64,000 nucleotides of DNA from Burkholderiaceae bacterium (GTDB lineage: Bacteria > Pseudomonadota > Gammaproteobacteria > Burkholderiales > Burkholderiaceae_C), in NCBI GenBank assembly GCA_022702125.1, contig JAKOND010000210.1, positions 17,322 through 81,321 of the forward strand, read 5' to 3'. The translations under genes were made by a program, and so were the position numbers. A model generated the notes under the pieces. The model made no database searches. It was not told where the DNA came from and saw nothing but the letters and a program-made list of their open reading frames with translations. This document shows positions 2,354-59,549 of the stretch, piece after piece (position 1 is the stretch's first letter; the number at the start of each line of letters is the position of its first letter).

Positions 2354-3076
2354 TCAGGGCATCGTCGGCAGCTCGTTCGGCCGCAGGTCGAACACCAGCA
2401 CCTCGGCACCCTCGCCCCCGGTGAGGCGCAGCGGCCCGGCATTGCGGATGCGGGCGCCGTCGCCGTCCGAGAGGCGCTCGCCGTTCACCTCCACGCTGCC
2501 GCGCGCCACATGCACATAGACGTGCCGGTCCGGGCCCACGGCCAGTTCGGCGGATTCATCGCCGTCGAACAGGCCGGCATAGACCCGCGCATCCTGGCGC
2601 ACGGCCAGGGCGCCGTCATCGCCTTCGGGCGAGATGATCTGGCGCAGGCGCCCGCGCTTGTCGGCCTCGGTGAAATGCACCTGCTGGTAGCGCGGCTGGG
2701 CGCCGCGCTGGTTGGGCACGATCCAGATCTGCAGGAAGTGCACGGGATCGGTGCCCGAGTGGTTGAACTCGCTGTGCTGCACGCCGCTGCCGGCGCTCAT
2801 CATCTGCACGTCGCCGGGGCGGATGACCGAGCCCGTGCCCATCGAGTCCTTGTGTTCCAGCGCGCCTTCGAGCACGTAGGAAAAGATCTCCATGTCGCGG
2901 TGGCCATGGGTGCCGAAGCCGTTGGACGGCGTCACGCGGTCGTCGTTGATGACCAGCAGGTCCGAAAAGCCTTGCTGGTTCGCGTCGCGGTAGTGGCCGA
3001 ACGAGAAGGTGTGGCGCGACTGCAGCCAGCCGTGGTTGGCGATGCCTCGTTGCTGGGCGCGGCGGATATCGAGCAT
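2354..3076 (-). CDS. Pirin family protein (bicupin)
   Basis: MLDIRRAQQRGIANHGWLQSRHTFSFGHYRD...HGHRDMEIFSYVLEG carries the pirin cupin His motifs. I prefer ATG 3076 over 3100 because AAGGGA lies about 9 nt upstream. The gene is divergent from a LysR gene. Confidence 0.9.
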   Translation of the reverse strand: MLDIRRAQQRGIANHGWLQSRHTFSFGHYRDANQQGFSDLLVINDDRVTPSNGFGTHGHRDMEIFSYVLEGALEHKDSMGTGSVIRPGDVQMMSAGSGVQHSEFNHSGTDPVHFLQIWIVPNQRGAQPRYQQVHFTEADKRGRLRQIISPEGDDGALAVRQDARVYAGLFDGDESAELAVGPDRHVYVHVARGSVEVNGERLSDGDGARIRNAGPLRLTGGEGAEVLVFDLRPNELPTMP

Positions 3077-3112
3077 GGTGTCTGTCCCTTCTTGCTTCAT
3101 CGATGGAATTCA

Positions 3113-3136
3113 CACTGAAAGAAAGCGCTTTCAGTG
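3113..3136. promoter_or_regulatory. Inverted repeat in the pirin/LysR divergent region; candidate LTTR binding site
   Basis: CACTGAAAG-aaagcg-CTTTCAGTG contains the perfect 12-bp palindrome GAAAGCGCTTTC. It fits the T-N11-A style of LysR-type boxes. Confidence 0.45.
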
Positions 3137-3196
3137 CTGCGATGGAAGAAGTATCGGCCGGCAACGCGCCCGTCAGGTTGAAAGGTGTGGGCCGCC

Positions 3197-3217
3197 ATCA
3201 TCGATAATTTCGATGAT
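3197..3217. promoter_or_regulatory. Second inverted repeat just upstream of the LysR start
   Basis: ATCATCGA-taatt-TCGATGAT has 8-bp perfect arms. It lies 22 nt upstream of ATG 3239. Confidence 0.4.
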
Positions 3218-3238
3218 TCACCACACCCCGGGAGCCGC

Positions 3239-4141
3239 ATGCTCAAACTCACGCTGGAAGCCATCGAACTGGTGGATGCCATCGCCCGCAGCGGCTCGTT
3301 CGCGGGCGCATCGGAACAGCTGCACAAGGTGCCCTCCACCATCTCCTACGCCGTGGGCAAGCTGGAGGAGCAACTGGGCTTCGCGCTGTTCACGCGCAAC
3401 GGCCCGCGCGTGGCGCTGACGCCCGCCGGGCAGGAACTGATCCGCGAAGGCCGGTGGCTGCTGGCCGCCGCGCACCAGCTCGAATCGCGCATGCGGCAGG
3501 TGGCGACCGGCTTCGAATCCGAAGTGCGGCTGATGCACGACTCGCTGATTCCCACCGAGGCCTTCAACCAGGACATCTGCGCCTTCGAAGACCTGCAGTG
3601 CGGCACCCGCCTGCGCATCGCCAGCGAGGCCATGACCGGCACCTGGGAAGCCCTGCGCGAAGGCCGTGCCGACCTCATCGTGGCCGCCGGCGAAGGCCCG
3701 GCCGGCGGCGGCTACAAGGCCGTGGCGGTGGGCAGCCTGGCCTTCGCCTTCTGCGTGACCGCCACCCACCCGCTGGCCCGGCTGCAGCGCCCGCTCACTC
3801 GCGCCGACCTGCTGGAGCACACGGCCGTGGTGGTGGGAGACGGCGCGCGCTCGCTCGCCGACCGCACGGTGGGCCTGCTCTCCGGCCAGCGCCGCATCAC
3901 GGTGCCGAACATGCAGGCCAAGATAGCCGCCCAGGCCGCCGGCCTGGGCCACGGCTTCGTACCCCGTGCCTGCGTGCGGGTGGAGCTGGAAACCGGCGTG
4001 CTGGTGGAACTGCCCGTGGAAGAGCCCCGCCCGGACGAAACCTTCTGGCTGGCCTGGCGGCCCGAGCACATGGGCGAGGCGCTCAAGTGGTGGAGCCAGC
4101 GGCTGAACCGGGCGCTGCTGCCGGGGATTCTTCCGTATTGA
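3239..4141 (+). CDS. LysR-family transcriptional regulator
   Basis: The N-terminal wHTH is MLKLTLEAIELVDAIARSGSFAGASEQLHKVPSTISYAVGKLEEQLGFALFTRNGPRVALTPAG. The length is 300 aa. It is divergent from the pirin gene, a classic LTTR arrangement. Confidence 0.9.
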   Translation: MLKLTLEAIELVDAIARSGSFAGASEQLHKVPSTISYAVGKLEEQLGFALFTRNGPRVALTPAGQELIREGRWLLAAAHQLESRMRQVATGFESEVRLMHDSLIPTEAFNQDICAFEDLQCGTRLRIASEAMTGTWEALREGRADLIVAAGEGPAGGGYKAVAVGSLAFAFCVTATHPLARLQRPLTRADLLEHTAVVVGDGARSLADRTVGLLSGQRRITVPNMQAKIAAQAAGLGHGFVPRACVRVELETGVLVELPVEEPRPDETFWLAWRPEHMGEALKWWSQRLNRALLPGILPY

Positions 4142-4451
4142 GGGCTCGCATCGGCGGGCTTGCATGGGAGGGCCCAGCAAGCGCCAGGCCTGCGACGCTT
4201 CGGCTTCGCTCTGCCCGCATCAGCCCCAAAGGCACTCGACGACTTCGGGTTTGAACTCTGCTGGATACTGTTCCATCAAACCCCGGGACGGAGGTCCAGT
4301 TCCTGGGGAAAAGTGAAAATCAGGGGCGGTTCAGGCACTTCAACTCCGGCCCGGCTCCCGTCGCCGCCAAGCAGCCGCCCCGTCCTCACGCATGGCTCCT
4401 GGCCGAGCGGCCTTCGCACGGAGCCCGACCCGGCCTGCCCGTGCCGATACA

Positions 4452-4494
4452 TCCATCCGTCCATCGTCCATCGTCCATCGTCCATCGTCCATGG
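4452..4494 (+). repeat. Heptanucleotide tandem repeat (TCCATCG)n
   Basis: There are four perfect TCCATCG units at 4460-4487. They are flanked by degenerate units TCCATCCG (4452-4459) and TCCATGG (4488-4494). The last unit contains ATG 4491. Confidence 0.95.
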
Positions 4495-5657
4495 TTCTCG
4501 ATCCTTTCACCCTGCTCGTCATCACCGCCGCCATGGCAGCTGCCTCTACGCTGTACCTGGCTTCGGAGTGGCGCAGCGTGCGCGAGCGTTCGCTGCTCCT
4601 TTGGAGCGCGGGGTTCGCCGTCGTCGCCGTCGGCAGCGCGCTGGCCCTGCTGCGTTCCAGCGGTTTCGTGTTCGTGGGCATCTGGTTCTCCAACGGCTTG
4701 CTGATCGTGGCCCACGCGCTGTTCCTGGCCGGCGTTGCCGCGTTCAGACGCACCCGGCTGCCGCGCGCCTGGTGGCTGTTGGCCGCCGTCTGGCTGGCGA
4801 TGCTGTGGCTGCCCGACGGGCCCTGGTGGTCCAAGGCGATGCTCGGCGTCCAGTCGATGCTCATCGCCGCCATCACCTTGCGCGCCGGCCTGCTGCTGCG
4901 CCCGCAGGACGCCGCGCTGAGCGTGGGCGCGGCACAGCTGCGCTTCGTCCTGTTGGCGCACGGCCTGTTCTACCTCGCCAAGGCCGCCTCGGTGGTTGAG
5001 CTCGACACATTCGTCAACCTGGCCAGTTTCCGTGGCGTGGTGATCCAGGTGTCGCTGGTGGAAGGCGTCATGGCGATCATGTTGCTCGCCATGTCCATGA
5101 CCGGCACCGAGCGCCATCGCCGCGAGGAACGCATGGCGCAGATAGCCGCCCTCGACCCGCTCACCGCTTTGGACAACCGTCGCGCGCTCTATCTGCGCGC
5201 CCCGGCGCTGCTGCGGCAGGCGTCACCCGCCCGCCCGGGCGCCTTGCTGCTGATGGACATCGACAACTTCAAGCAGGTCAACGACCTGCACGGCCACGAT
5301 GCAGGCGACCGCCTGTTGATCACGCTCAGCGACTTGATCCGCAGCGTGCTGCCGAGCGGCGCACTGGCCGCGCGGCTGGGCGGGGACGAATTCGTGATCC
5401 TGCTGTGCGACGCGCCGGCTTCAGCCGCGCAGGCGGTGGGCCAGGAACTGCGCGAGGCGTTCTCACGCCAGGCGCGCGCGACGTTCGCAACGCCGGACCC
5501 AGTGTCCCTCAGCATCGGGGCGAGCTTGTTCGACCGGCCCGACGCCGAGCTGTCGCATTGGCTCAAGCGGGCCGACGAAGCGCTGTATGCATCGAAGCGC
5601 AAGGGGCGGGACCGGATGGAGCTCGACCTTCCGGCTCCGCCAGGGCGGCCGTACTGA
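4491..5657 (+). CDS. Membrane-anchored diguanylate cyclase (multi-TM N-domain + GGDEF)
   Basis: The C-terminal domain has LDPLTALDNRRAL...DIDNFKQVNDLHGHDAGD...RLGGDEFVILL...ADEALYASKRKGRD. The N-terminal half is hydrophobic. The start is ambiguous: ATG 4491 or the in-frame ATG 4392 upstream of the repeat tract. Neither has a clear SD. Confidence 0.85.
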   Translation: MVLDPFTLLVITAAMAAASTLYLASEWRSVRERSLLLWSAGFAVVAVGSALALLRSSGFVFVGIWFSNGLLIVAHALFLAGVAAFRRTRLPRAWWLLAAVWLAMLWLPDGPWWSKAMLGVQSMLIAAITLRAGLLLRPQDAALSVGAAQLRFVLLAHGLFYLAKAASVVELDTFVNLASFRGVVIQVSLVEGVMAIMLLAMSMTGTERHRREERMAQIAALDPLTALDNRRALYLRAPALLRQASPARPGALLLMDIDNFKQVNDLHGHDAGDRLLITLSDLIRSVLPSGALAARLGGDEFVILLCDAPASAAQAVGQELREAFSRQARATFATPDPVSLSIGASLFDRPDAELSHWLKRADEALYASKRKGRDRMELDLPAPPGRPY

Positions 5658-5725
5658 TGTCGCCTGGCTCGGCGGACACCGCCGGGGTGGCCGACGATGG
5701 TTTCCAACGCGAACTGGCGGCCGTC

Positions 5726-6439
5726 TTACTTCAACAGCTGCAGCAGCGCCTCGGCCGCCGGCTCCGACGATGCCGGGTTCTGCCCCGTCACCAGCTTCCC
5801 ATCGGTCAGCACGAACGGCGCCCAATCGGCGCCCTTGGCGTATTCGCCGCCATTCGCCTTGAGCATGTCTTCGACCAGGAAGGGCACCACCTTCGTGAGC
5901 TGCACGCCTTCTTCCTCGCTGTTGGTGAAGCCCGTGACCTTGCGGCCCTTGACCAGTGGTTGGCCGCCGGGCGCCTTGGTGTGGCGCAGCACGCCGGGGG
6001 CGTGGCAGACCAGGGCCAGGGGCTTCTGGGCGGCGAAGGTCTTTTCGATCAGCGAGATGGAGCGGGCGTCTTCCGCCAGGTCCCACAACGGGCCGTGGCC
6101 GCCGGGGTAGAACACGGCGTCGAATTCTTCGGGATCGACGCTGGCCAGCGGCACGGTGGAAGCCAGCTGCTTCTGCGCGTCGGCATCGGCCTTGAAGCGG
6201 CGGGTGGCGTCGGTCTGCTCGCTTTCGTCGTCGCTCTTGGGGTCCAGCGGCGGCTGGCCGCCGTGGGGCGAGGCGAGGGTGATGGCGGCACCTGCGTCCT
6301 TGAAGACGTAGTACGGGGCGGCGAACTCTTCGAGCCAGAAACCGGTCTTCTTGCCCGTGTCACCCAGGCGGTCGTGCGAGGTGAGCACCATGAGGATGCG
6401 GGGGGCCGAGGAAGAAGAGGAGGTGTTGGGGTGGTTCAT
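5726..6439 (-). CDS. DJ-1/PfpI (type 1 glutamine amidotransferase-like) family protein
   Basis: ILMVLTSHDRLGDTGKKTGFWLEEFAAPYYVF...PLALVCHAPGVL carries the nucleophile-elbow Cys. The length is 237 aa. Confidence 0.85.
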   Translation of the reverse strand: MNHPNTSSSSSAPRILMVLTSHDRLGDTGKKTGFWLEEFAAPYYVFKDAGAAITLASPHGGQPPLDPKSDDESEQTDATRRFKADADAQKQLASTVPLASVDPEEFDAVFYPGGHGPLWDLAEDARSISLIEKTFAAQKPLALVCHAPGVLRHTKAPGGQPLVKGRKVTGFTNSEEEGVQLTKVVPFLVEDMLKANGGEYAKGADWAPFVLTDGKLVTGQNPASSEPAAEALLQLLK

Positions 6440-6569
6440 GCGTTGGCGCTCCAGACAAAAGCGGGGACGAAAGTCCCAAGGCCCTGCAGTCTCGCCACCT
6501 GGTGCCAGGCCCCTGGTAGGACGCAGCCGCTAACGCCTCGCCGCCCCTCGCTGGCAGCGGCGCCCCCCG

Positions 6570-7553
6570 TCAGTCGAGCTTGACCCCGGCGGCCTGGATG
6601 ATGGGGCCCCAGCGTTTCGCCTCGGCACGCGCCATGGCGCGGAACTGCTCGGGCGTGCCGGGCAGCGCCTCCATGCCGAAGCCCTGCAGGCGCTGGGCCA
6701 CGGCGGGCGTGGCCAGGGCCTTGTTGATCTCGGCATTGAGCTGGCCGACGATGGCCGGAGGCAGGCCGGCCGGGCCGAGCACGCCCTGGAAGGCGTAGAC
6801 CTCGGCGTCGGCCACGCCCAGTTCGGCCAGCGTGGGCACGTCGGGCAGGCTGGCGGCGCGGCGGCTGGAGCCGATGGCGAGCGCCCGCACCTTGCCCGAC
6901 TGGATCACCGGCAGGCCGGCCGCCAAGTCCAGGAACATGCACGGCACCTGCCCGCCCATCACATCCTGCAGCGCCGGGGCCGCGCCGCGGTAGGGGATGT
7001 GGGTGAGGAAGGTCCTGGTGCGGTTCTTGAACATCTCCATCGCCAGGTGGTGGGGCGAGCCGTTGCCGGGCGAGGCGTAGTTGAGCTTGCCGGGGTTGGC
7101 GCGGGCGTAGGCCAAAAATTGCGCGAAGTTGCGCGCCTCGAAGGCCGGATTGACCACCAAAGCAAGCGGAAAACGCGAGAGACCGCCGACGTAGCTGAAG
7201 TCTTTCTCGGGGCTGAAGGGCAGCTTGCTGAAGAGGTGTTCGTTGAAGGCCAGCAGGGCGTTGTCGGCCGACATGAGCGTGTAGCCGTCGGGTTTGGCGG
7301 TGGCGACCAGCTGCGCGCCGATGTTGGTGGAGGCGCCCGGGCGGTTGTCCACCACGATCTGCTGGCCCAGCGGCACGCGCAGCGCCTCGGCCATGGTGCG
7401 GGCCAGCACGTCGGTGCCTCCGCCGGCCGGGTACGGCACGATCCAGCGGATGGGCTGGCTGGGATAGCCGGGCGGCTGGGCGAAGGCGGCGGGCGTGGCC
7501 GCGGCGGCGCCCGCGAGGGCGATGGCGTTCTGGAGGAGCTGTCTGCGCTGCAT
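6570..7553 (-). CDS. Tripartite tricarboxylate transporter substrate-binding protein (Bug/TctC family)
   Basis: A signal peptide is followed by the hallmark YPSQPIRWIVPYPAGGGTDVLARTMAEAL. The length is 327 aa. Confidence 0.9.
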   Translation of the reverse strand: MQRRQLLQNAIALAGAAAATPAAFAQPPGYPSQPIRWIVPYPAGGGTDVLARTMAEALRVPLGQQIVVDNRPGASTNIGAQLVATAKPDGYTLMSADNALLAFNEHLFSKLPFSPEKDFSYVGGLSRFPLALVVNPAFEARNFAQFLAYARANPGKLNYASPGNGSPHHLAMEMFKNRTRTFLTHIPYRGAAPALQDVMGGQVPCMFLDLAAGLPVIQSGKVRALAIGSSRRAASLPDVPTLAELGVADAEVYAFQGVLGPAGLPPAIVGQLNAEINKALATPAVAQRLQGFGMEALPGTPEQFRAMARAEAKRWGPIIQAAGVKLD

Positions 7554-10692: not shown

Positions 10693-11982
10693 ATGCCGCG
10701 CCGCGTGCTGCTCGTCCTCGCCTGCGCCGTGCTGGCGCTGCACCTGCTGGTGATCAGGCACCTGCCGCTGGGCGGCGCTGCGGCGAGCGACAAGCCCCAG
10801 CAGCTGGCATTCCAGACACGCATGGTGGAGCCGCCGGCGCCTGAACCCGCCGCGGTGACCGAGCCCGCGCCAGCCCAACCACCACCGCCCTCGCCGCCCC
10901 CGAAGCCCAGGCCGCGCCACCGCTCGCCCCCCCGACCGGCACCCGCTCCCCCGCCAGCCGAAGCGCCCGCGCCGGAACCGGAGCCCACGCCGGCCGACGC
11001 TCCCACTGCCCCCGCTACGGTGCCGGCGACGGAGCCCTCTGCAACGGCCGAGGCGGCATCGCCCCCGCCCGCGCCGGACGATGCCGCCACGCCAGCGGAT
11101 CCGGCAGCAGCAGCAGCAGCAGCAGCAGCGGGCACCGCCCCGCAGCAGGACACATCCGCCGCTGCAGCGCAGGCCCCCGCCCCGGCCAGTCCCGCCAGCG
11201 CACCCGCTTCTACCCCGCTCACGGCGGCCTCCAGCGCCCCGGCTACCACGGCCCCCACCACCACCGACACCCAGGCCGGCGTCACCATCCAGTCGCCGGG
11301 CAGCGGCACGCCGCCGGTCGATGCCTCGGCAGCCCCGGTGCGGCTGCCGCCTTCGACGCGCCTTAGCTTCGACGTGACCGGCCAGGCCAAGCGCTTCCAC
11401 TACAGCGCCAGCGCCGAACTGCTCTGGCGCAACCTGGGCGCCACCTACGAGGCGCGGCAGGAGATCAAGGCCTTCCTGCTGGGCTCGCGCTCGCAGACCA
11501 GCACCGGCCGCATCACCGAACAAGGCCTGCAGCCGGTGCGCTTCGGGGACCGCGCCCGGGCCGAGCAGGCCGCGCATTTCGACTACGACCGGCATCTGGC
11601 CACCTTCAGCGCCAACACGCCCGACAGCCCCATCGGCCCCGGCGCGCAGGACCGGCTGAGCGTGTTCATCCAGCTGGGCGCGCTGCTGGCGGCCGCGCCC
11701 GAGCGCTATCCACCCGGCACCCGCATCACGCTGACCACGGTGGGCGCGCGCTCGGCCGACCGCTGGAGCTTCACCGTCGAAGGCACCGAAACGCTGAACC
11801 TGCCCGCCGGCCCCACGCCCGCGCTGAAGCTGCAGCGCCTGCCCCGCGCCGACAAGGACCGAGACCAGCAGGCCGACCTGTGGCTGGGCACCGGGCTGGG
11901 CTATCTGCCGGTGCGCATCCGCATCACCCAGGCCAACGGCGACTTCGCCGACCTGGCGCTGAGCGGGCACGAGACACCTTGA
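10693..11982 (+). CDS. DUF3108-domain protein with N-terminal TM anchor and a long Pro/Ala-rich linker
   Basis: MPRRVLLVLACAVLALHLLVI is followed by about 200 aa of P/A/T-rich low complexity. A C-terminal beta-rich domain follows (RLSFDVTGQAKRFHYSASAELLWRN...LPVRIRITQANGDFADLAL). An alternative start at ATG 10624 overlaps iclR. Confidence 0.75.
   Translation: MPRRVLLVLACAVLALHLLVIRHLPLGGAAASDKPQQLAFQTRMVEPPAPEPAAVTEPAPAQPPPPSPPPKPRPRHRSPPRPAPAPPPAEAPAPEPEPTPADAPTAPATVPATEPSATAEAASPPPAPDDAATPADPAAAAAAAAAGTAPQQDTSAAAAQAPAPASPASAPASTPLTAASSAPATTAPTTTDTQAGVTIQSPGSGTPPVDASAAPVRLPPSTRLSFDVTGQAKRFHYSASAELLWRNLGATYEARQEIKAFLLGSRSQTSTGRITEQGLQPVRFGDRARAEQAAHFDYDRHLATFSANTPDSPIGPGAQDRLSVFIQLGALLAAAPERYPPGTRITLTTVGARSADRWSFTVEGTETLNLPAGPTPALKLQRLPRADKDRDQQADLWLGTGLGYLPVRIRITQANGDFADLALSGHETP
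11104..11127 (+). repeat. (GCA)8 trinucleotide repeat inside the DUF3108 gene
   Basis: Eight consecutive GCA codons plus one GCG encode poly-Ala. Confidence 0.95.
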
Positions 11983-42498: not shown

Positions 42499-42700
42499 GG
42501 GTCTGATTTTGCTCGAAGCCCTGCTGGCGCTGGCGCTGCTGGCGGGCATCGTCTGGTGGACGATGTTCTCCGGCCGCGCCCGGGGCGAGCGGCCCGGGGC
42601 GCATCCGCCCGCGCCGCCGGCGCAGGACCCCGCCGCGCCGCCCCCGACCGCGCCGTCTCCGGCGCCCCCCGCCTCCCCGCCGCCTCCGGCGGCTTCCTGA
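42497..42700 (+). CDS. Possible 67-aa membrane mini-protein (one TM helix + Pro-rich tail)
   Basis: MGLILLEALLALALLAGIVWWTMFSGRARGE is followed by a P/A tail. GC3 is high. Its ATG overlaps the mltA ATG on the opposite strand (CATG), so this call is speculative. Confidence 0.3.
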   Translation: MGLILLEALLALALLAGIVWWTMFSGRARGERPGAHPPAPPAQDPAAPPPTAPSPAPPASPPPPAAS

Positions 42701-56283: not shown

Positions 56284-58074
56284 ATGCCCGATGCTTCCGC
56301 ACCGCGCCGGCGGCTCTGGCGGACCGGAGCGCCGGTGCCCGACACCTACCAGTTCCCGCCGCACGAACGGGCCACCATGCCCGGCTCGCCGGCCACGCCC
56401 GAGCATCCGACGGCGCGCCGGGTGGCGTACTTCCTCACCGGCATCCTGCTGGGGCTGACCGGGGGCTTCGGCAACGCGCTGATCGCGGCCAACCTGCCCA
56501 ACATCCAGGGCACGCTCGGCCTCTACAGCAACGAGGCGGCCTGGCTGAGCACCGCCTACCTGATGACCAACGTGTGCATGAACCTGCTGCTGATCAAGTT
56601 CCGGCAGCAGTTCGGCCTGAACGTCTTCATCCGCATCTTCCTCGGCGCCTACGTGGCGCTGACGCTGGCGCACCTGTTCGTCCACGGCTTCGGCACGGCG
56701 GTGGCGGTGCGCGCGGCCAGCGGCATCGCGGCCGGCGCGCTCAGCACGCTGTCGCTGTTCTATTTCATCCAGTCGATGCCCGCGCGCTGGCGCCTGAAGG
56801 GCATCGTGCTGGGCGTGGGCGTGCCGCAGCTGGCGACGCCGCTGGCGCGGCTGTTCTCGTCGGACCTGCTGGAATTCGGCGGCTGGCGCACGCTCTACCT
56901 GTTCGAGCTGGGCCTGGCGCTGCTGTCGCTGGCGGCGGTGGCGCTGCTGCGGCTGCCGCCGAGCGAGCGCATCAAGGTCTTCGAGAAGCTCGACCTGCTG
57001 ACCTTCGCGCTGTTCGCGCCGGGCATCGCGCTGCTGTGCGCGGTGCTGGGCCAGGGCCGCATCGTCTGGTGGACCGACACGGCCTGGCTCGGCTGGGCGC
57101 TGTGCGGCGCCATCGCGCTGCTGGCCGCGGCGCTGCTGGTCGAGCACAACCGGGCCAACCCGCTGCTCAACACCCGCTGGCTCAGCAGCGGCGACATCGC
57201 GCGCTTCGCGGTGGTGGCCACGCTGGTGCGGCTGCTGCTGTCGGAGCAGAGCTTCGGCTCGGTCGGGCTGCTGGCCGCGCTGGGCGTGGGCAACGACCAG
57301 CTGATCGGCCTGTTCGCGGTGGTGTCGGCGGCCACGGTCGCGGGCCTCGTCGTCAGCGTGCTGACCGTCTCGCCGCAGAACCTGGGCCTGCCCATCGTGG
57401 CGGCGCTGGCGCTGATCGCGGCCGGCAGCTTCCTCGATGCGCGCGCGACCAACCTGGTGCGGCCGCGGGACTTCTACCTCAGCCAGGCGCTGCTGGGCTT
57501 CGCGGCGGCGATCTTCATGGGGCCGGCGCTGCTGTTCGGCATGATCCGGGCGCTGCGCAAGGGGCCGTCGCACATCGTGAGCTTCACCGCCCTGTTCGGC
57601 ATCACCCAGAGCCTGGGCGGCCTGGCCGGCAGCGCGCTGCTGGGCACCTTCCAGGTGGCGCGCGAGAAGTTCCACTCGAACATGCTGGTCCAGTCGGTGC
57701 GCCTGACCGATCCGCTGGACGCGGCGCGCCTGCAGGCCGGCGCCGGCGCCTACGCCCGGGTGCTGGGCGATCCGGCGCTGCGCCAGGCCGAGGGCGGCGC
57801 GCTGCTGTCGCAGCAGTTCACCCGCGAGGCCAACGTGCTGGCCTTCAACGACGTCTTCCTGGCGATCGGCATCCTGTCCTGCGCGGCGGTACTGTGGGTG
57901 GGATGGCTGGTGGTGCGCGCCCGGCGCCTCGCCGCCGCGTCCGCCGCGCCGGCCGCTCCCGCCGCGCCTGCCGCCTCCCCCGCGACGCCCCGGACGCCGG
58001 CGCCCGCGACCGTTCCCGCCGCCAACGTCGCCCCGGCCGCGCCCCCGGCGGGCGGCTCCCAGGATTCCCGATGA
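56284..58074 (+). CDS. MFS efflux transporter (EmrB/DHA2-like) with Pro/Ala-rich C-tail
   Basis: It is polytopic (about 14 predicted hydrophobic helices). The operon also encodes a HlyD adaptor and an OMF. Confidence 0.85.
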   Translation: MPDASAPRRRLWRTGAPVPDTYQFPPHERATMPGSPATPEHPTARRVAYFLTGILLGLTGGFGNALIAANLPNIQGTLGLYSNEAAWLSTAYLMTNVCMNLLLIKFRQQFGLNVFIRIFLGAYVALTLAHLFVHGFGTAVAVRAASGIAAGALSTLSLFYFIQSMPARWRLKGIVLGVGVPQLATPLARLFSSDLLEFGGWRTLYLFELGLALLSLAAVALLRLPPSERIKVFEKLDLLTFALFAPGIALLCAVLGQGRIVWWTDTAWLGWALCGAIALLAAALLVEHNRANPLLNTRWLSSGDIARFAVVATLVRLLLSEQSFGSVGLLAALGVGNDQLIGLFAVVSAATVAGLVVSVLTVSPQNLGLPIVAALALIAAGSFLDARATNLVRPRDFYLSQALLGFAAAIFMGPALLFGMIRALRKGPSHIVSFTALFGITQSLGGLAGSALLGTFQVAREKFHSNMLVQSVRLTDPLDAARLQAGAGAYARVLGDPALRQAEGGALLSQQFTREANVLAFNDVFLAIGILSCAAVLWVGWLVVRARRLAAASAAPAAPAAPAASPATPRTPAPATVPAANVAPAAPPAGGSQDSR

Positions 58075-59549
58075 ACGCCCTGCCCCCTTCCCCGCCCGCC
58101 CCGTCGCCTGTTCCGGCGCCGCCGCCGCAACGCCTCGAAGACCCCGTCGAGACGCTGGCCGACCAGGACGAGGCCGCGCGCCAGGCGCGCGACGACCCGG
58201 ACCCCGACGCGCCGGCCGCGCCGCTGACGCCGGCCGCCGCCGCGGCGGTGCCGGCACCGCCGGCGCGACCGGCCTCCGCGGCCCCGCCCCCGGCCGGCGC
58301 GCCCGCCGCCGCCCCGGCGCCCGCGCCCGCCGCCAGCCCGGCCGCGCCGACCGGCTGGGCGCCGCCGCGCAGCGGCCTGCGGGGCACCGTCGCCCTGCTG
58401 GTGCTGGCGCTCGCGGGCATCCTGGTCGTGCTCTACGCCTGGCGGCTGCCGCCCTTCACCAGCGCCGTCGAGAGCACCGACAACGCCTACGTGCGCGGCC
58501 AGACCACCGTCGTCAGCCCGCAGGCCAGCGGCTACGTCGCCGAGGTGCCGGTGCAGGACTTCCAGCCGGTGCGCGCCGGGCAGGTGCTGGTGCGCATCGA
58601 CGACCGCATCTACCGCCAGCGGGTGGACCAGGCGCGCGCCTCGCTCGCCAGCCAGGTGGCGGGCCTGCGGAACTCGGCGCAGACCCTGCGCTCGCGCGAG
58701 GCCGCCGTCGGCTCCCAGGCGGCGGCGGTGGCCAGCGCGCGGGCCCAGCTCGACCGGGCGCGGGCCGACATGCGCCGCGTCGACGCGCTGGTGGCCGACG
58801 GCTCGGTCTCGCTGCGCGAGCGCGACCAGACCCTGGCCGCGCTGCGCCAGGCCGAGACCGCCGTCGCCCAGGCGCAGGCCGCGGGCGAGATCGCGCGCCA
58901 GGACGTGCGCTCGGTCACCGTCGGCCGCGCGGGGCTCGAAGCCGGCGTGGCCGGCGCGCAGGCGGCGCTGCGGCTGGCCGAGATCGACCTCGAGAACACC
59001 GCCGTGCGCGCGCCGCGCGACGGCCGGCTCAGCGAGGTGGGCGTGCGCGTCGGCCAGTACGTCACCGCCGGCACGCAGCTGATGTTCCTGGTGCCCGACC
59101 GGCTGTGGATCGTCGCCAACTACAAGGAGGCGCAGACGGCGCGCATGGCGCCTGGCCAGCCGGTCAGCTTCCGGGTGGACGCGCTGGGCGATGCGCGCCT
59201 GACCGGCCGCGTCGAGCGGCTCGCGCCCGCCGCCGGGTCGGAATTCGCGGTGCTGCGGCCGGACAACGCCACCGGCAACTTCGTGAAGGTGGCCCAGCGC
59301 ATCGCGGTGCGCATCGCCATCGACCCCGGCCAGCCGCTGGCGGCGCGGCTGCGCCCGGGCCTGTCGGTGGAGACGCGGGTCGACACCGCCGCGCGGCCGG
59401 ACGGCGCCCGGACGGGATCGGCCCCGGGCGCGCCCGGCGCGCCGCCGTCGCGGGACCCGCCCGCCGTCCCGGGCGCGGCGACGGGCGCGGCCGACGCGGC
59501 GGCTCCGCCGCCGATGCCGTCCCCCGCCGGCGCGGAAACCCGGCGATGA
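58071..59549 (+). CDS. HlyD/EmrA-family membrane fusion protein
   Basis: ATGA overlaps the MFS stop. A P/A-rich N-region of about 110 aa precedes a TM helix. TDNAYVRGQTTVVSPQASGYVAEVPVQDFQPVRAGQVLVRID is the biotinyl-lipoyl-like domain. A coiled coil and NFVKVAQRIAVRI follow. Confidence 0.88.
   Translation: MNALPPSPPAPSPVPAPPPQRLEDPVETLADQDEAARQARDDPDPDAPAAPLTPAAAAAVPAPPARPASAAPPPAGAPAAAPAPAPAASPAAPTGWAPPRSGLRGTVALLVLALAGILVVLYAWRLPPFTSAVESTDNAYVRGQTTVVSPQASGYVAEVPVQDFQPVRAGQVLVRIDDRIYRQRVDQARASLASQVAGLRNSAQTLRSREAAVGSQAAAVASARAQLDRARADMRRVDALVADGSVSLRERDQTLAALRQAETAVAQAQAAGEIARQDVRSVTVGRAGLEAGVAGAQAALRLAEIDLENTAVRAPRDGRLSEVGVRVGQYVTAGTQLMFLVPDRLWIVANYKEAQTARMAPGQPVSFRVDALGDARLTGRVERLAPAAGSEFAVLRPDNATGNFVKVAQRIAVRIAIDPGQPLAARLRPGLSVETRVDTAARPDGARTGSAPGAPGAPPSRDPPAVPGAATGAADAAAPPPMPSPAGAETRR

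Follow-up and report, generated by a model that had tools for sequence, protein, structure and literature searches.

The GGDEF diguanylate cyclase gene in the stretch of Burkholderiaceae DNA analysed here (64,000 nt, hereafter the window) is preceded by a heptanucleotide array that closes with its start codon. The array belongs to a known class, the polymorphic intergenic simple sequence repeats (SSR/VNTR), and it is probably a microsatellite that slippage produced within the untranslated leader preceding a conserved membrane GGDEF gene. The features of the locus are the following, all on the forward strand of the window:

4452 to 4494 (+): heptanucleotide array, TCCA TCCG (TCCATCG)x4 TCCATGG; non-coding leader DNA closing with the start codon
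4460 to 4487 (+): four perfect TCCATCG units; lineages B, C and D lack 7, 14 and 21 nt of this segment, respectively
4491 to 5657 (+): gene of the GGDEF diguanylate cyclase, 388 aa; N-terminal half hydrophobic; start ATG 4491
4392 to 4394 (+): upstream in-frame ATG, proposed as an alternative start and rejected here
4142 to 4490 (+): LysR-GGDEF intergenic region with promoter and leader; weak -10-like GAAAAT at 4315-4320, its placement inferred from alignment
4449 to 4454 (+): conserved leader motif ACATCC, which is AYATYC in all Comamonadaceae orthologues and lies 36 nt from the ATG here

The units of the array start with TCCA at 4452 and TCCG at 4456, continue with TCCATCG at 4460, 4467, 4474 and 4481, and end with TCCATGG at 4488-4494, which gives the ATG at 4491-4493. 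Four identical short units are thus arranged head to tail, accompanied by degenerate ones. Tandem Repeats Finder (TRF), run on the window, reported 4452-4492 with a period of 7, 5.7 copies, 97% matches and a score of 73, and the heptanucleotide tandem repeat that the original prediction had placed at the GGDEF start codon is, on the sequence and this score, a genuine SSR. Within the 64-kb window it was the sole near-perfect array of a short period not divisible by 3. The 14-mer TCCATCGTCCATCG, searched with up to one mismatch, had no site in the window besides this tract; in shuffled sequence a mean of 0.03 matches was obtained and none of 100 shuffles got to 4. Among 102 fetched loci the 14-mer was found at the orthologous position of the closest relatives only. 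A dispersed heptamer family, like the TAACTGA repeats of Beggiatoaceae (PMC4679880), was rejected, TCCATCGTCCATCG being confined to a single locus in both the window and the fetched set. Further tandem arrays of the window are a perfect (GCA)8.7 at 11104-11129 and long degenerate GC-rich arrays, with periods from 9 to 36, at 42605-42691 and 57925-58353.

The product of the downstream gene matched the Pfam GGDEF domain (PF00990, E = 2.5e-39, residues 252-408 of the 421-aa open reading frame that begins at ATG 4392). The motif RLGGDEFVILL is intact and invariant across the alignment, as expected for a putative diguanylate cyclase with a complete GG(D/E)EF signature, and the N-terminal half contains 5-6 hydrophobic segments. 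The designation of the protein as a membrane diguanylate cyclase therefore holds at the sequence level.

The surroundings of the gene were found to be variable. Its 3' flank (window approximately 5658-5725) differs among close relatives, with a DJ-1/PfpI gene directly downstream in the window. In L084 (4233-5733) about 2.7 kb of extra DNA with three small ORFs is found 3' of the GGDEF gene, and in L086 (2453-3594) this flank has a DUF6602 gene. The flank of L088 (2888-4173) encodes a protein of 2541 aa whose matches are to the DnaG zinc-ribbon, to Toprim and, faintly, to RVT, and a gene pair of 71 and 1410 aa lies 3' of the GGDEF gene in L089-L094 (2700-4173 in L089). As judged from these genes, the 3' flank appears to be a preferred insertion site of defence-like cargo. 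In Comamonas thiooxydans, C. terrigena and Xylophilus (L100, L101 and L102) the GGDEF gene and about 250 nt upstream of it are found in other neighbourhoods than that of window 2354-7553, and the protein is 79-83% identical to that of the window despite this. GGDEF copies of 60-66% identity occur in Pseudomonas and Herbaspirillum.

In order to examine the copy number of the repeat across strains, as the original prediction had proposed, the window was compared with nine related Paracidovorax wautersii-like contigs, which are 97.9-99.9% identical. The 90%-identity protein cluster comprised five sequence variants, and the upstream DNA was read for all of them. Four lineages, diverged by 1-3% and each with an allele of its own, were obtained:

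Lineage A (window, L081, L082, L083): 4 perfect TCCATCG units; 99.8-99.9% nucleotide identity to the window
Lineage B (L095, L096): 3 perfect TCCATCG units; 98.4% nucleotide identity to the window
Lineage C (L084, P. wautersii GCA_039596175.1): 2 perfect TCCATCG units; 98.2% identity to the window
Lineage D (L097, L098, L099): 1 perfect TCCATCG unit; 97.9-98.4% nucleotide identity to the window

Copy number is thus not invariant, the outcome that would have spoken against the prediction, since alleles of 1, 2, 3 and 4 units exist at 97.9-99.9% identity. The alleles differ by exact multiples of 7 between identical flanks, as is characteristic of an SSR/VNTR. In blastn alignments of approximately 2.8-4.2 kb each, the tract was the single gap opening for every relative except L084, which showed 3. 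When L084 was aligned to the window with mafft, 2.68 kb contained a single internal gap, the 14 nt of the tract, which maps to 4458-4471; the remaining two lay at the ends of the compared segment, where the sequences diverge downstream of the gene. TRF counted 3.7 copies in the L084 tract. Across lineages A, B and D, zero gap columns were present in the 2660 nt downstream of the ATG, and two minor tandem repeats close by, of periods 14 and 9, do not differ between the window and L084. Locally, the tract is a hot spot for indels.

The possibility that the array is an artefact of assembly or sequencing, or arose by chance, can be given practically no weight. Repeats are in principle open to mis-assembly and nothing specific points to it here, whereas the tract is at most 43 bp long, well within read length, and every allele bar the 2-unit one is backed by two or more assemblies. 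Separate sources (JGI and ENA contigs in addition to the window) yielded the 4-unit and 1-unit alleles. The differences in whole units between identical flanks, together with the chance expectation of 0.03 matches, speak against both versions. When metagenomes were scanned with a DNA pattern for tracts of other lengths, only a contig already in the set was returned. In the protein scan of genome contigs, the matches listed were mostly distant GGDEF proteins, the useful ones being L001, L020 and a few from Pseudomonas and Herbaspirillum.

The consequence of such length changes depends on where translation starts. Two reading frames are open, 4392-5657 (421 aa) and 4491-5657 (388 aa). It had been claimed that ATG 4392 is in frame with 4491 and that the tract would then translate as ...IRPSSIVHRPSSM; this was confirmed for the 4-unit allele. 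The best 120 homologues listed, from Paracidovorax, Comamonas, Acidovorax, Variovorax, Xylophilus and Roseateles, are 382-398 aa long, and all 120 span 90-92% of the 421-aa ORF. In an alignment of 15 homologues, 14 start at the Met of ATG 4491 (MVLDPFTLL); the exception (P0002) has its annotated start one codon earlier (MALLDPF). Gene callers gave 388 aa in every related assembly. The in-frame GC3 value was 0.61 for 4392-4490 (0.60 without the repeat) versus 0.89 for the gene, and no Shine-Dalgarno (SD) sequence was found before ATG 4392. This codon is missing from L001, L086, L089 and L100-L102, and in-frame stops precede the ATG of the gene by 18 nt in L089 and by 30 nt in L100. With 2 or 3 units, ATG 4392 is no longer in frame and the gene is still intact. 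In view of the low GC3, the missing ATGs and the in-frame stops, ATG 4392 was likewise rejected as the start of a conserved ORF upstream or of an extended N-terminus.

As judged from the homologous starts and the lack of a coding signal upstream, translation is shown to begin at ATG 4491, with the tract as non-coding DNA, so the frameshift ON/OFF mechanism of the original prediction is rejected. That mechanism, in which translation starts at ATG 4392 and one unit more or less switches the cyclase off, appears highly improbable: ATG 4392 is in frame without an intervening stop in both the 4-unit and 1-unit alleles, and against this stand the shared homologue start, the uniform 388-aa calls, the drop in GC3, the missing SD and the unconserved ATG 4392. 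As for membership among frameshift-type contingency loci, the unit is of 7 nt but the tract precedes the conserved ATG 4491.

The prediction that the tract occupies the usual SD position of the gene, with no SD visible, was borne out. None of GGAG, GAGG, AGGA, GGGA or AAGG occurs within 25 nt upstream of ATG 4491, and no SD was detected in any Comamonadaceae orthologue leader, while the neighbouring LysR, DJ-1/PfpI, TctC and pirin genes have GGAG, AGGAG or GGGA 5-10 nt before their starts. Orthologues more distant than the P. wautersii-like contigs have no array. The leaders of the Comamonadaceae orthologues share a common layout, namely a block ending in AYATYC, a short G-poor spacer and then YCCATGG. 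The distances from the motif to the ATG are:

7 nt: Acidovorax sp., Variovorax sp., Comamonas thiooxydans, Xylophilus sp.
9 nt: C. terrigena
11 nt: L088, L089
15 nt: L086 and the 1-unit allele
22, 29 and 36 nt: the 2-unit, 3-unit and 4-unit alleles, respectively

Read in the register ATCGTCC, one 8-nt imperfect unit and 4 perfect ones follow ACATCC and the array ends flush with the ATG, which identifies it as a multiplied motif-to-ATG spacer. The leader comparison shows the array to be a lineage-specific tandem multiplication of an ancestral 7-nt ACATCC-to-ATG spacer; the ancestral state is one spacer unit. The array was seeded by the similarity between CATCC and TCCATGG. The presence of AYATYC exactly 7 nt from the ATG in four genera suggests that it may be a non-SD initiation determinant. 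The gene start itself reads ATGGCTCTCCTCGATCC in L086 and L087 versus ATGGTTCTCGATCC (L086 919-935, orthologous to window 4491-4504). The 3-nt CTC duplication in these two adds one Leu and represents a second small slippage event at the start region.

A scan for promoters and terminators revealed neither a sigma-70 consensus or hexamer pair nor a terminator in 4100-4560, and no Rfam match at E ≤ 1 was obtained in 3900-4800, so a known structured RNA leader, c-di-GMP riboswitches included, was not recognized. A promoter-spacer contingency locus has -35 and -10 elements flanking the tract, and no sigma-70-like pair was detected in 4100-4560; moreover, since the tract closes with the start codon, there is no room downstream for a -10 element and a transcription start site. 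An extended -10-like element, TCCTGCGAYAAT (TGCGAYAAT), is conserved in other genera and aligns with GTGAAAAT at approximately 4313-4320 of the window. If this is the promoter, the tract would be transcribed within a leader of about 160 nt.

Leader variants of 0-12 units were folded in silico, with the 5' end assumed at four positions. Every unit added approximately 0.5 kcal/mol, and the tract was predicted to be the least paired part of the leader (probability of being unpaired 0.45-0.68 vs 0.35-0.38). Predicted accessibility around the AUG was 0.54-0.60 over 0-8 units, and no copy-number-dependent structure appeared in any of these foldings (0-12 units, four 5' ends). The best predicted duplex partner of the tract reached -33.2 kcal/mol, weaker than the mean for shuffled tracts (-35.5 kcal/mol). 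The AUG was predicted to be mostly paired in all alleles (probability of being unpaired 0.06-0.15), and a self-complementary CCATGG is located at the start codon (4489-4494) and again at the Met15 codon (4531-4536). Further upstream, TTTGAACTCTGCTGGATACTGTTCCATCAA at 4250-4279 is conserved in the clade of 87-88% identity and includes an imperfect palindrome, TGGA-N6-TCCA, at 4262-4275; this block could be a putative regulator site, for instance for the adjacent LysR-type protein. The minus-strand (CGATGGA)n was considered as an array of putative CsrA-type ANGGA sites and set aside.

A different view of the leader takes the conserved GCCGATACAT block just upstream of the tract as a -10 element, either sigma-70-like or of the sigma-28 type GCCGATAA, which makes the tract a promoter-proximal spacer. 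The ancestral mRNA would then have been leaderless or very short-leadered, and each unit would lengthen an SD-less leader. The block GCCGATAC (4443-4450) agrees at 7 of 8 positions with the sigma-28 -10 consensus GCCGATAA; it lies 9-13 nt from the ATG in several genera, and a short leader would explain the universal absence of an SD. Despite this, the promoter scan was empty and no -35 partner (TAAA or TTGACA-like) stands at the right distance. Its counterparts, GCTGACACAT in the two Comamonas species and GCCAGTACAT in Xylophilus, make poor -10 elements, and Comamonas and Xylophilus have the better conserved TGCGAYAAT further upstream. The sigma-28 -10 candidate was rejected on the missing partner and this weak conservation, and both the promoter-proximal position of the tract and the short-leader history of the mRNA are considered improbable.

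The pace at which the tract changes was estimated from the same relatives. SNP distances define the four lineages, with 10-34 nt between them in the 1167-nt gene and 33-48 nt in 2660 nt, and with 0-10 nt of difference within a lineage. Copy number, read as the consensus allele of each assembly, which may hide minority alleles, matches the SNP lineage exactly and never varies inside one. Parsimony requires at least 3 length changes on a tree of about 3% total length. Combined with assumed usual bacterial mutation rates, this would place the rate of change of the tract at roughly 30-100 times the per-site substitution rate, or approximately 1e-8 to 1e-6 per generation. Such a rate would be well above that of background indels and orders of magnitude under that of classical contingency loci. 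Since copy number is constant within lineages, the tract looks like a heritable, fairly slow slippage hot spot. The classic rapid phase variation of the original prediction is unsupported, as fast switching would not be expected to leave a lineage-specific consensus. The metagenome contig L083 (k141) has its position 1 at window position ~4435, 16 nt upstream of the tract, and this contig break beside an SSR could reflect tract-length alleles coexisting in the sample.

Several known systems resemble the locus to different degrees. The original prediction had drawn an analogy with the (ATCTTTC)n repeats of Haemophilus influenzae hmw1A/hmw2A, which comprise 13-38 units about 70-105 bp upstream (PMC2651432). 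The hmw repeats are now reported to be transcribed and to pair with a G-rich arm in a long 5'-UTR hairpin that is cut by RNase III, with a natural minimum of eleven repeats (PMC12721329), and their effect is graded, not on/off (PMC2651432, PMC12721329). The two systems share a 7-nt unit, a non-coding position upstream of a gene and a copy number that differs between strains. The analogy is nevertheless weak, as the cyclase tract has 1-4 units abutting the ATG and no pairing partner, in contrast to 13-38 units around 100 bp upstream. With at most 4 units, it does not belong with the hmw-type 5'-UTR heptamer switch, a hairpin of at least 11 units (PMC12721329). The closest match in form is (AACAACC)1-7 of H. 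influenzae, located 13 bp upstream of a TonB-dependent receptor gene (PMC2651432). It is likewise a low-copy heptanucleotide SSR near a start codon, polymorphic among strains and a candidate regulator only. Its host is an AT-rich, host-adapted pathogen with many proven contingency loci, whereas the cyclase tract is flush with the ATG, in a Comamonadaceae genome of 72.5% G+C and next to a gene for a c-di-GMP enzyme.

In taxonomic terms, the SSRs/VNTRs of Burkholderia mallei and B. pseudomallei are similar, being intergenic repeats of high-G+C Burkholderiales (PMC1574311, PMC1853098). B. mallei has more than 12,000 SSRs, and its intergenic units of 7-14 nt, in 3-111 copies, were altered on passage (PMC1574311). 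Slipped-strand mispairing changes such repeats by whole units in both species, even where they have only 3 copies (PMC1574311, PMC1853098). The B. mallei changes were seen directly after passage, whereas the cyclase tract is known from between-lineage differences alone. Given these SSR numbers and passage changes, the original prediction went too far in calling such loci unusual for high-GC Burkholderiales (PMC1574311). With respect to the gene concerned, pdcB and pdcC of Clostridioides difficile are phase-variable c-di-GMP enzymes under the control of invertible switches (PMC9286219), and there too the DNA change is located upstream of a c-di-GMP-metabolising enzyme gene. The C. difficile change involves a recombinase that inverts DNA site-specifically rather than an SSR, and the enzymes concerned are phosphodiesterases; heritable stochastic control, with its switching and phenotypes, has been demonstrated there, whereas the cyclase tract is known from sequence alone. 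A search of full-text literature for diguanylate cyclases in connection with phase-variable and slipped-strand turned up only laboratory evolution of Pseudomonas aeruginosa, and a study of phenotypic variation in Acidovorax citrulli describes no SSR mechanism (PMC3759439).

A true contingency locus or rheostat would require that tract length switches frequently within populations, giving rise to differing cyclase levels and c-di-GMP behaviour, and that it is maintained by selection. We regard this as unlikely. On its side, whole-unit polymorphism covers all states from 1 to 4 in close relatives with no other indels nearby, and the tract lies at the initiation region of an SD-less gene, where it has moved the conserved motif from 7-15 to 36 nt. 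With 4 perfect units it is above the threshold of 3 applied to the heptanucleotide SSRs of H. influenzae, among which the (AACAACC)1-7 repeat is a listed candidate (PMC2651432), and the passage-altered B. mallei SSRs, even those of 3 copies, offer a precedent (PMC1574311). The four lineages with their four copy numbers could mean selection for different expression levels, that is, a functional rheostat. On the other hand, no SNP lineage contains more than one copy number (4 units in 4 assemblies, 3 units in 2 and 1 unit in 3), the tract is very short, and predicted leader structure and AUG accessibility are unresponsive to copy number.

The preferred reading is thus that of a slippage-made microsatellite in an untranslated leader. 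Replication slippage would add or remove whole 7-nt units in the SD-less leader, and with each unit the AUG would stand another 7 nt of G-poor RNA, itself weakly structured, away from the structured GC-rich leader and its ACATCC motif. The most likely consequence would be a graded heritable shift in the efficiency of translation initiation of the cyclase, or near neutrality, and we infer that the tract does not turn the cyclase ON or OFF. A translational rheostat of a new type, in which slippage multiplies the spacer between the non-SD motif ACATCC and the AUG of an SD-less mRNA and thereby steps the cyclase level and the c-di-GMP set point, is a speculative extension that we consider quite unlikely.

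Whatever the tract does, the start of the GGDEF gene can now be annotated confidently at ATG 4491. If copy number has no effect on cyclase output, the array would be a clean short VNTR marker separating P. wautersii-like lineages, as well as a textbook case of the birth of a microsatellite from a proto-repeat in a high-GC genome. If copy number does alter output, c-di-GMP signalling in a non-model betaproteobacterium would be adjustable by simple mutation, as if by a dial. The locus would then also help to learn how mRNAs lacking a Shine-Dalgarno sequence are recognized, since ACATCC is conserved at a fixed 7 nt in four genera. Should the rheostat prove true, strains or subpopulations of a Comamonadaceae species would inherit stepwise c-di-GMP set points, and with them different balances between biofilm and motility.
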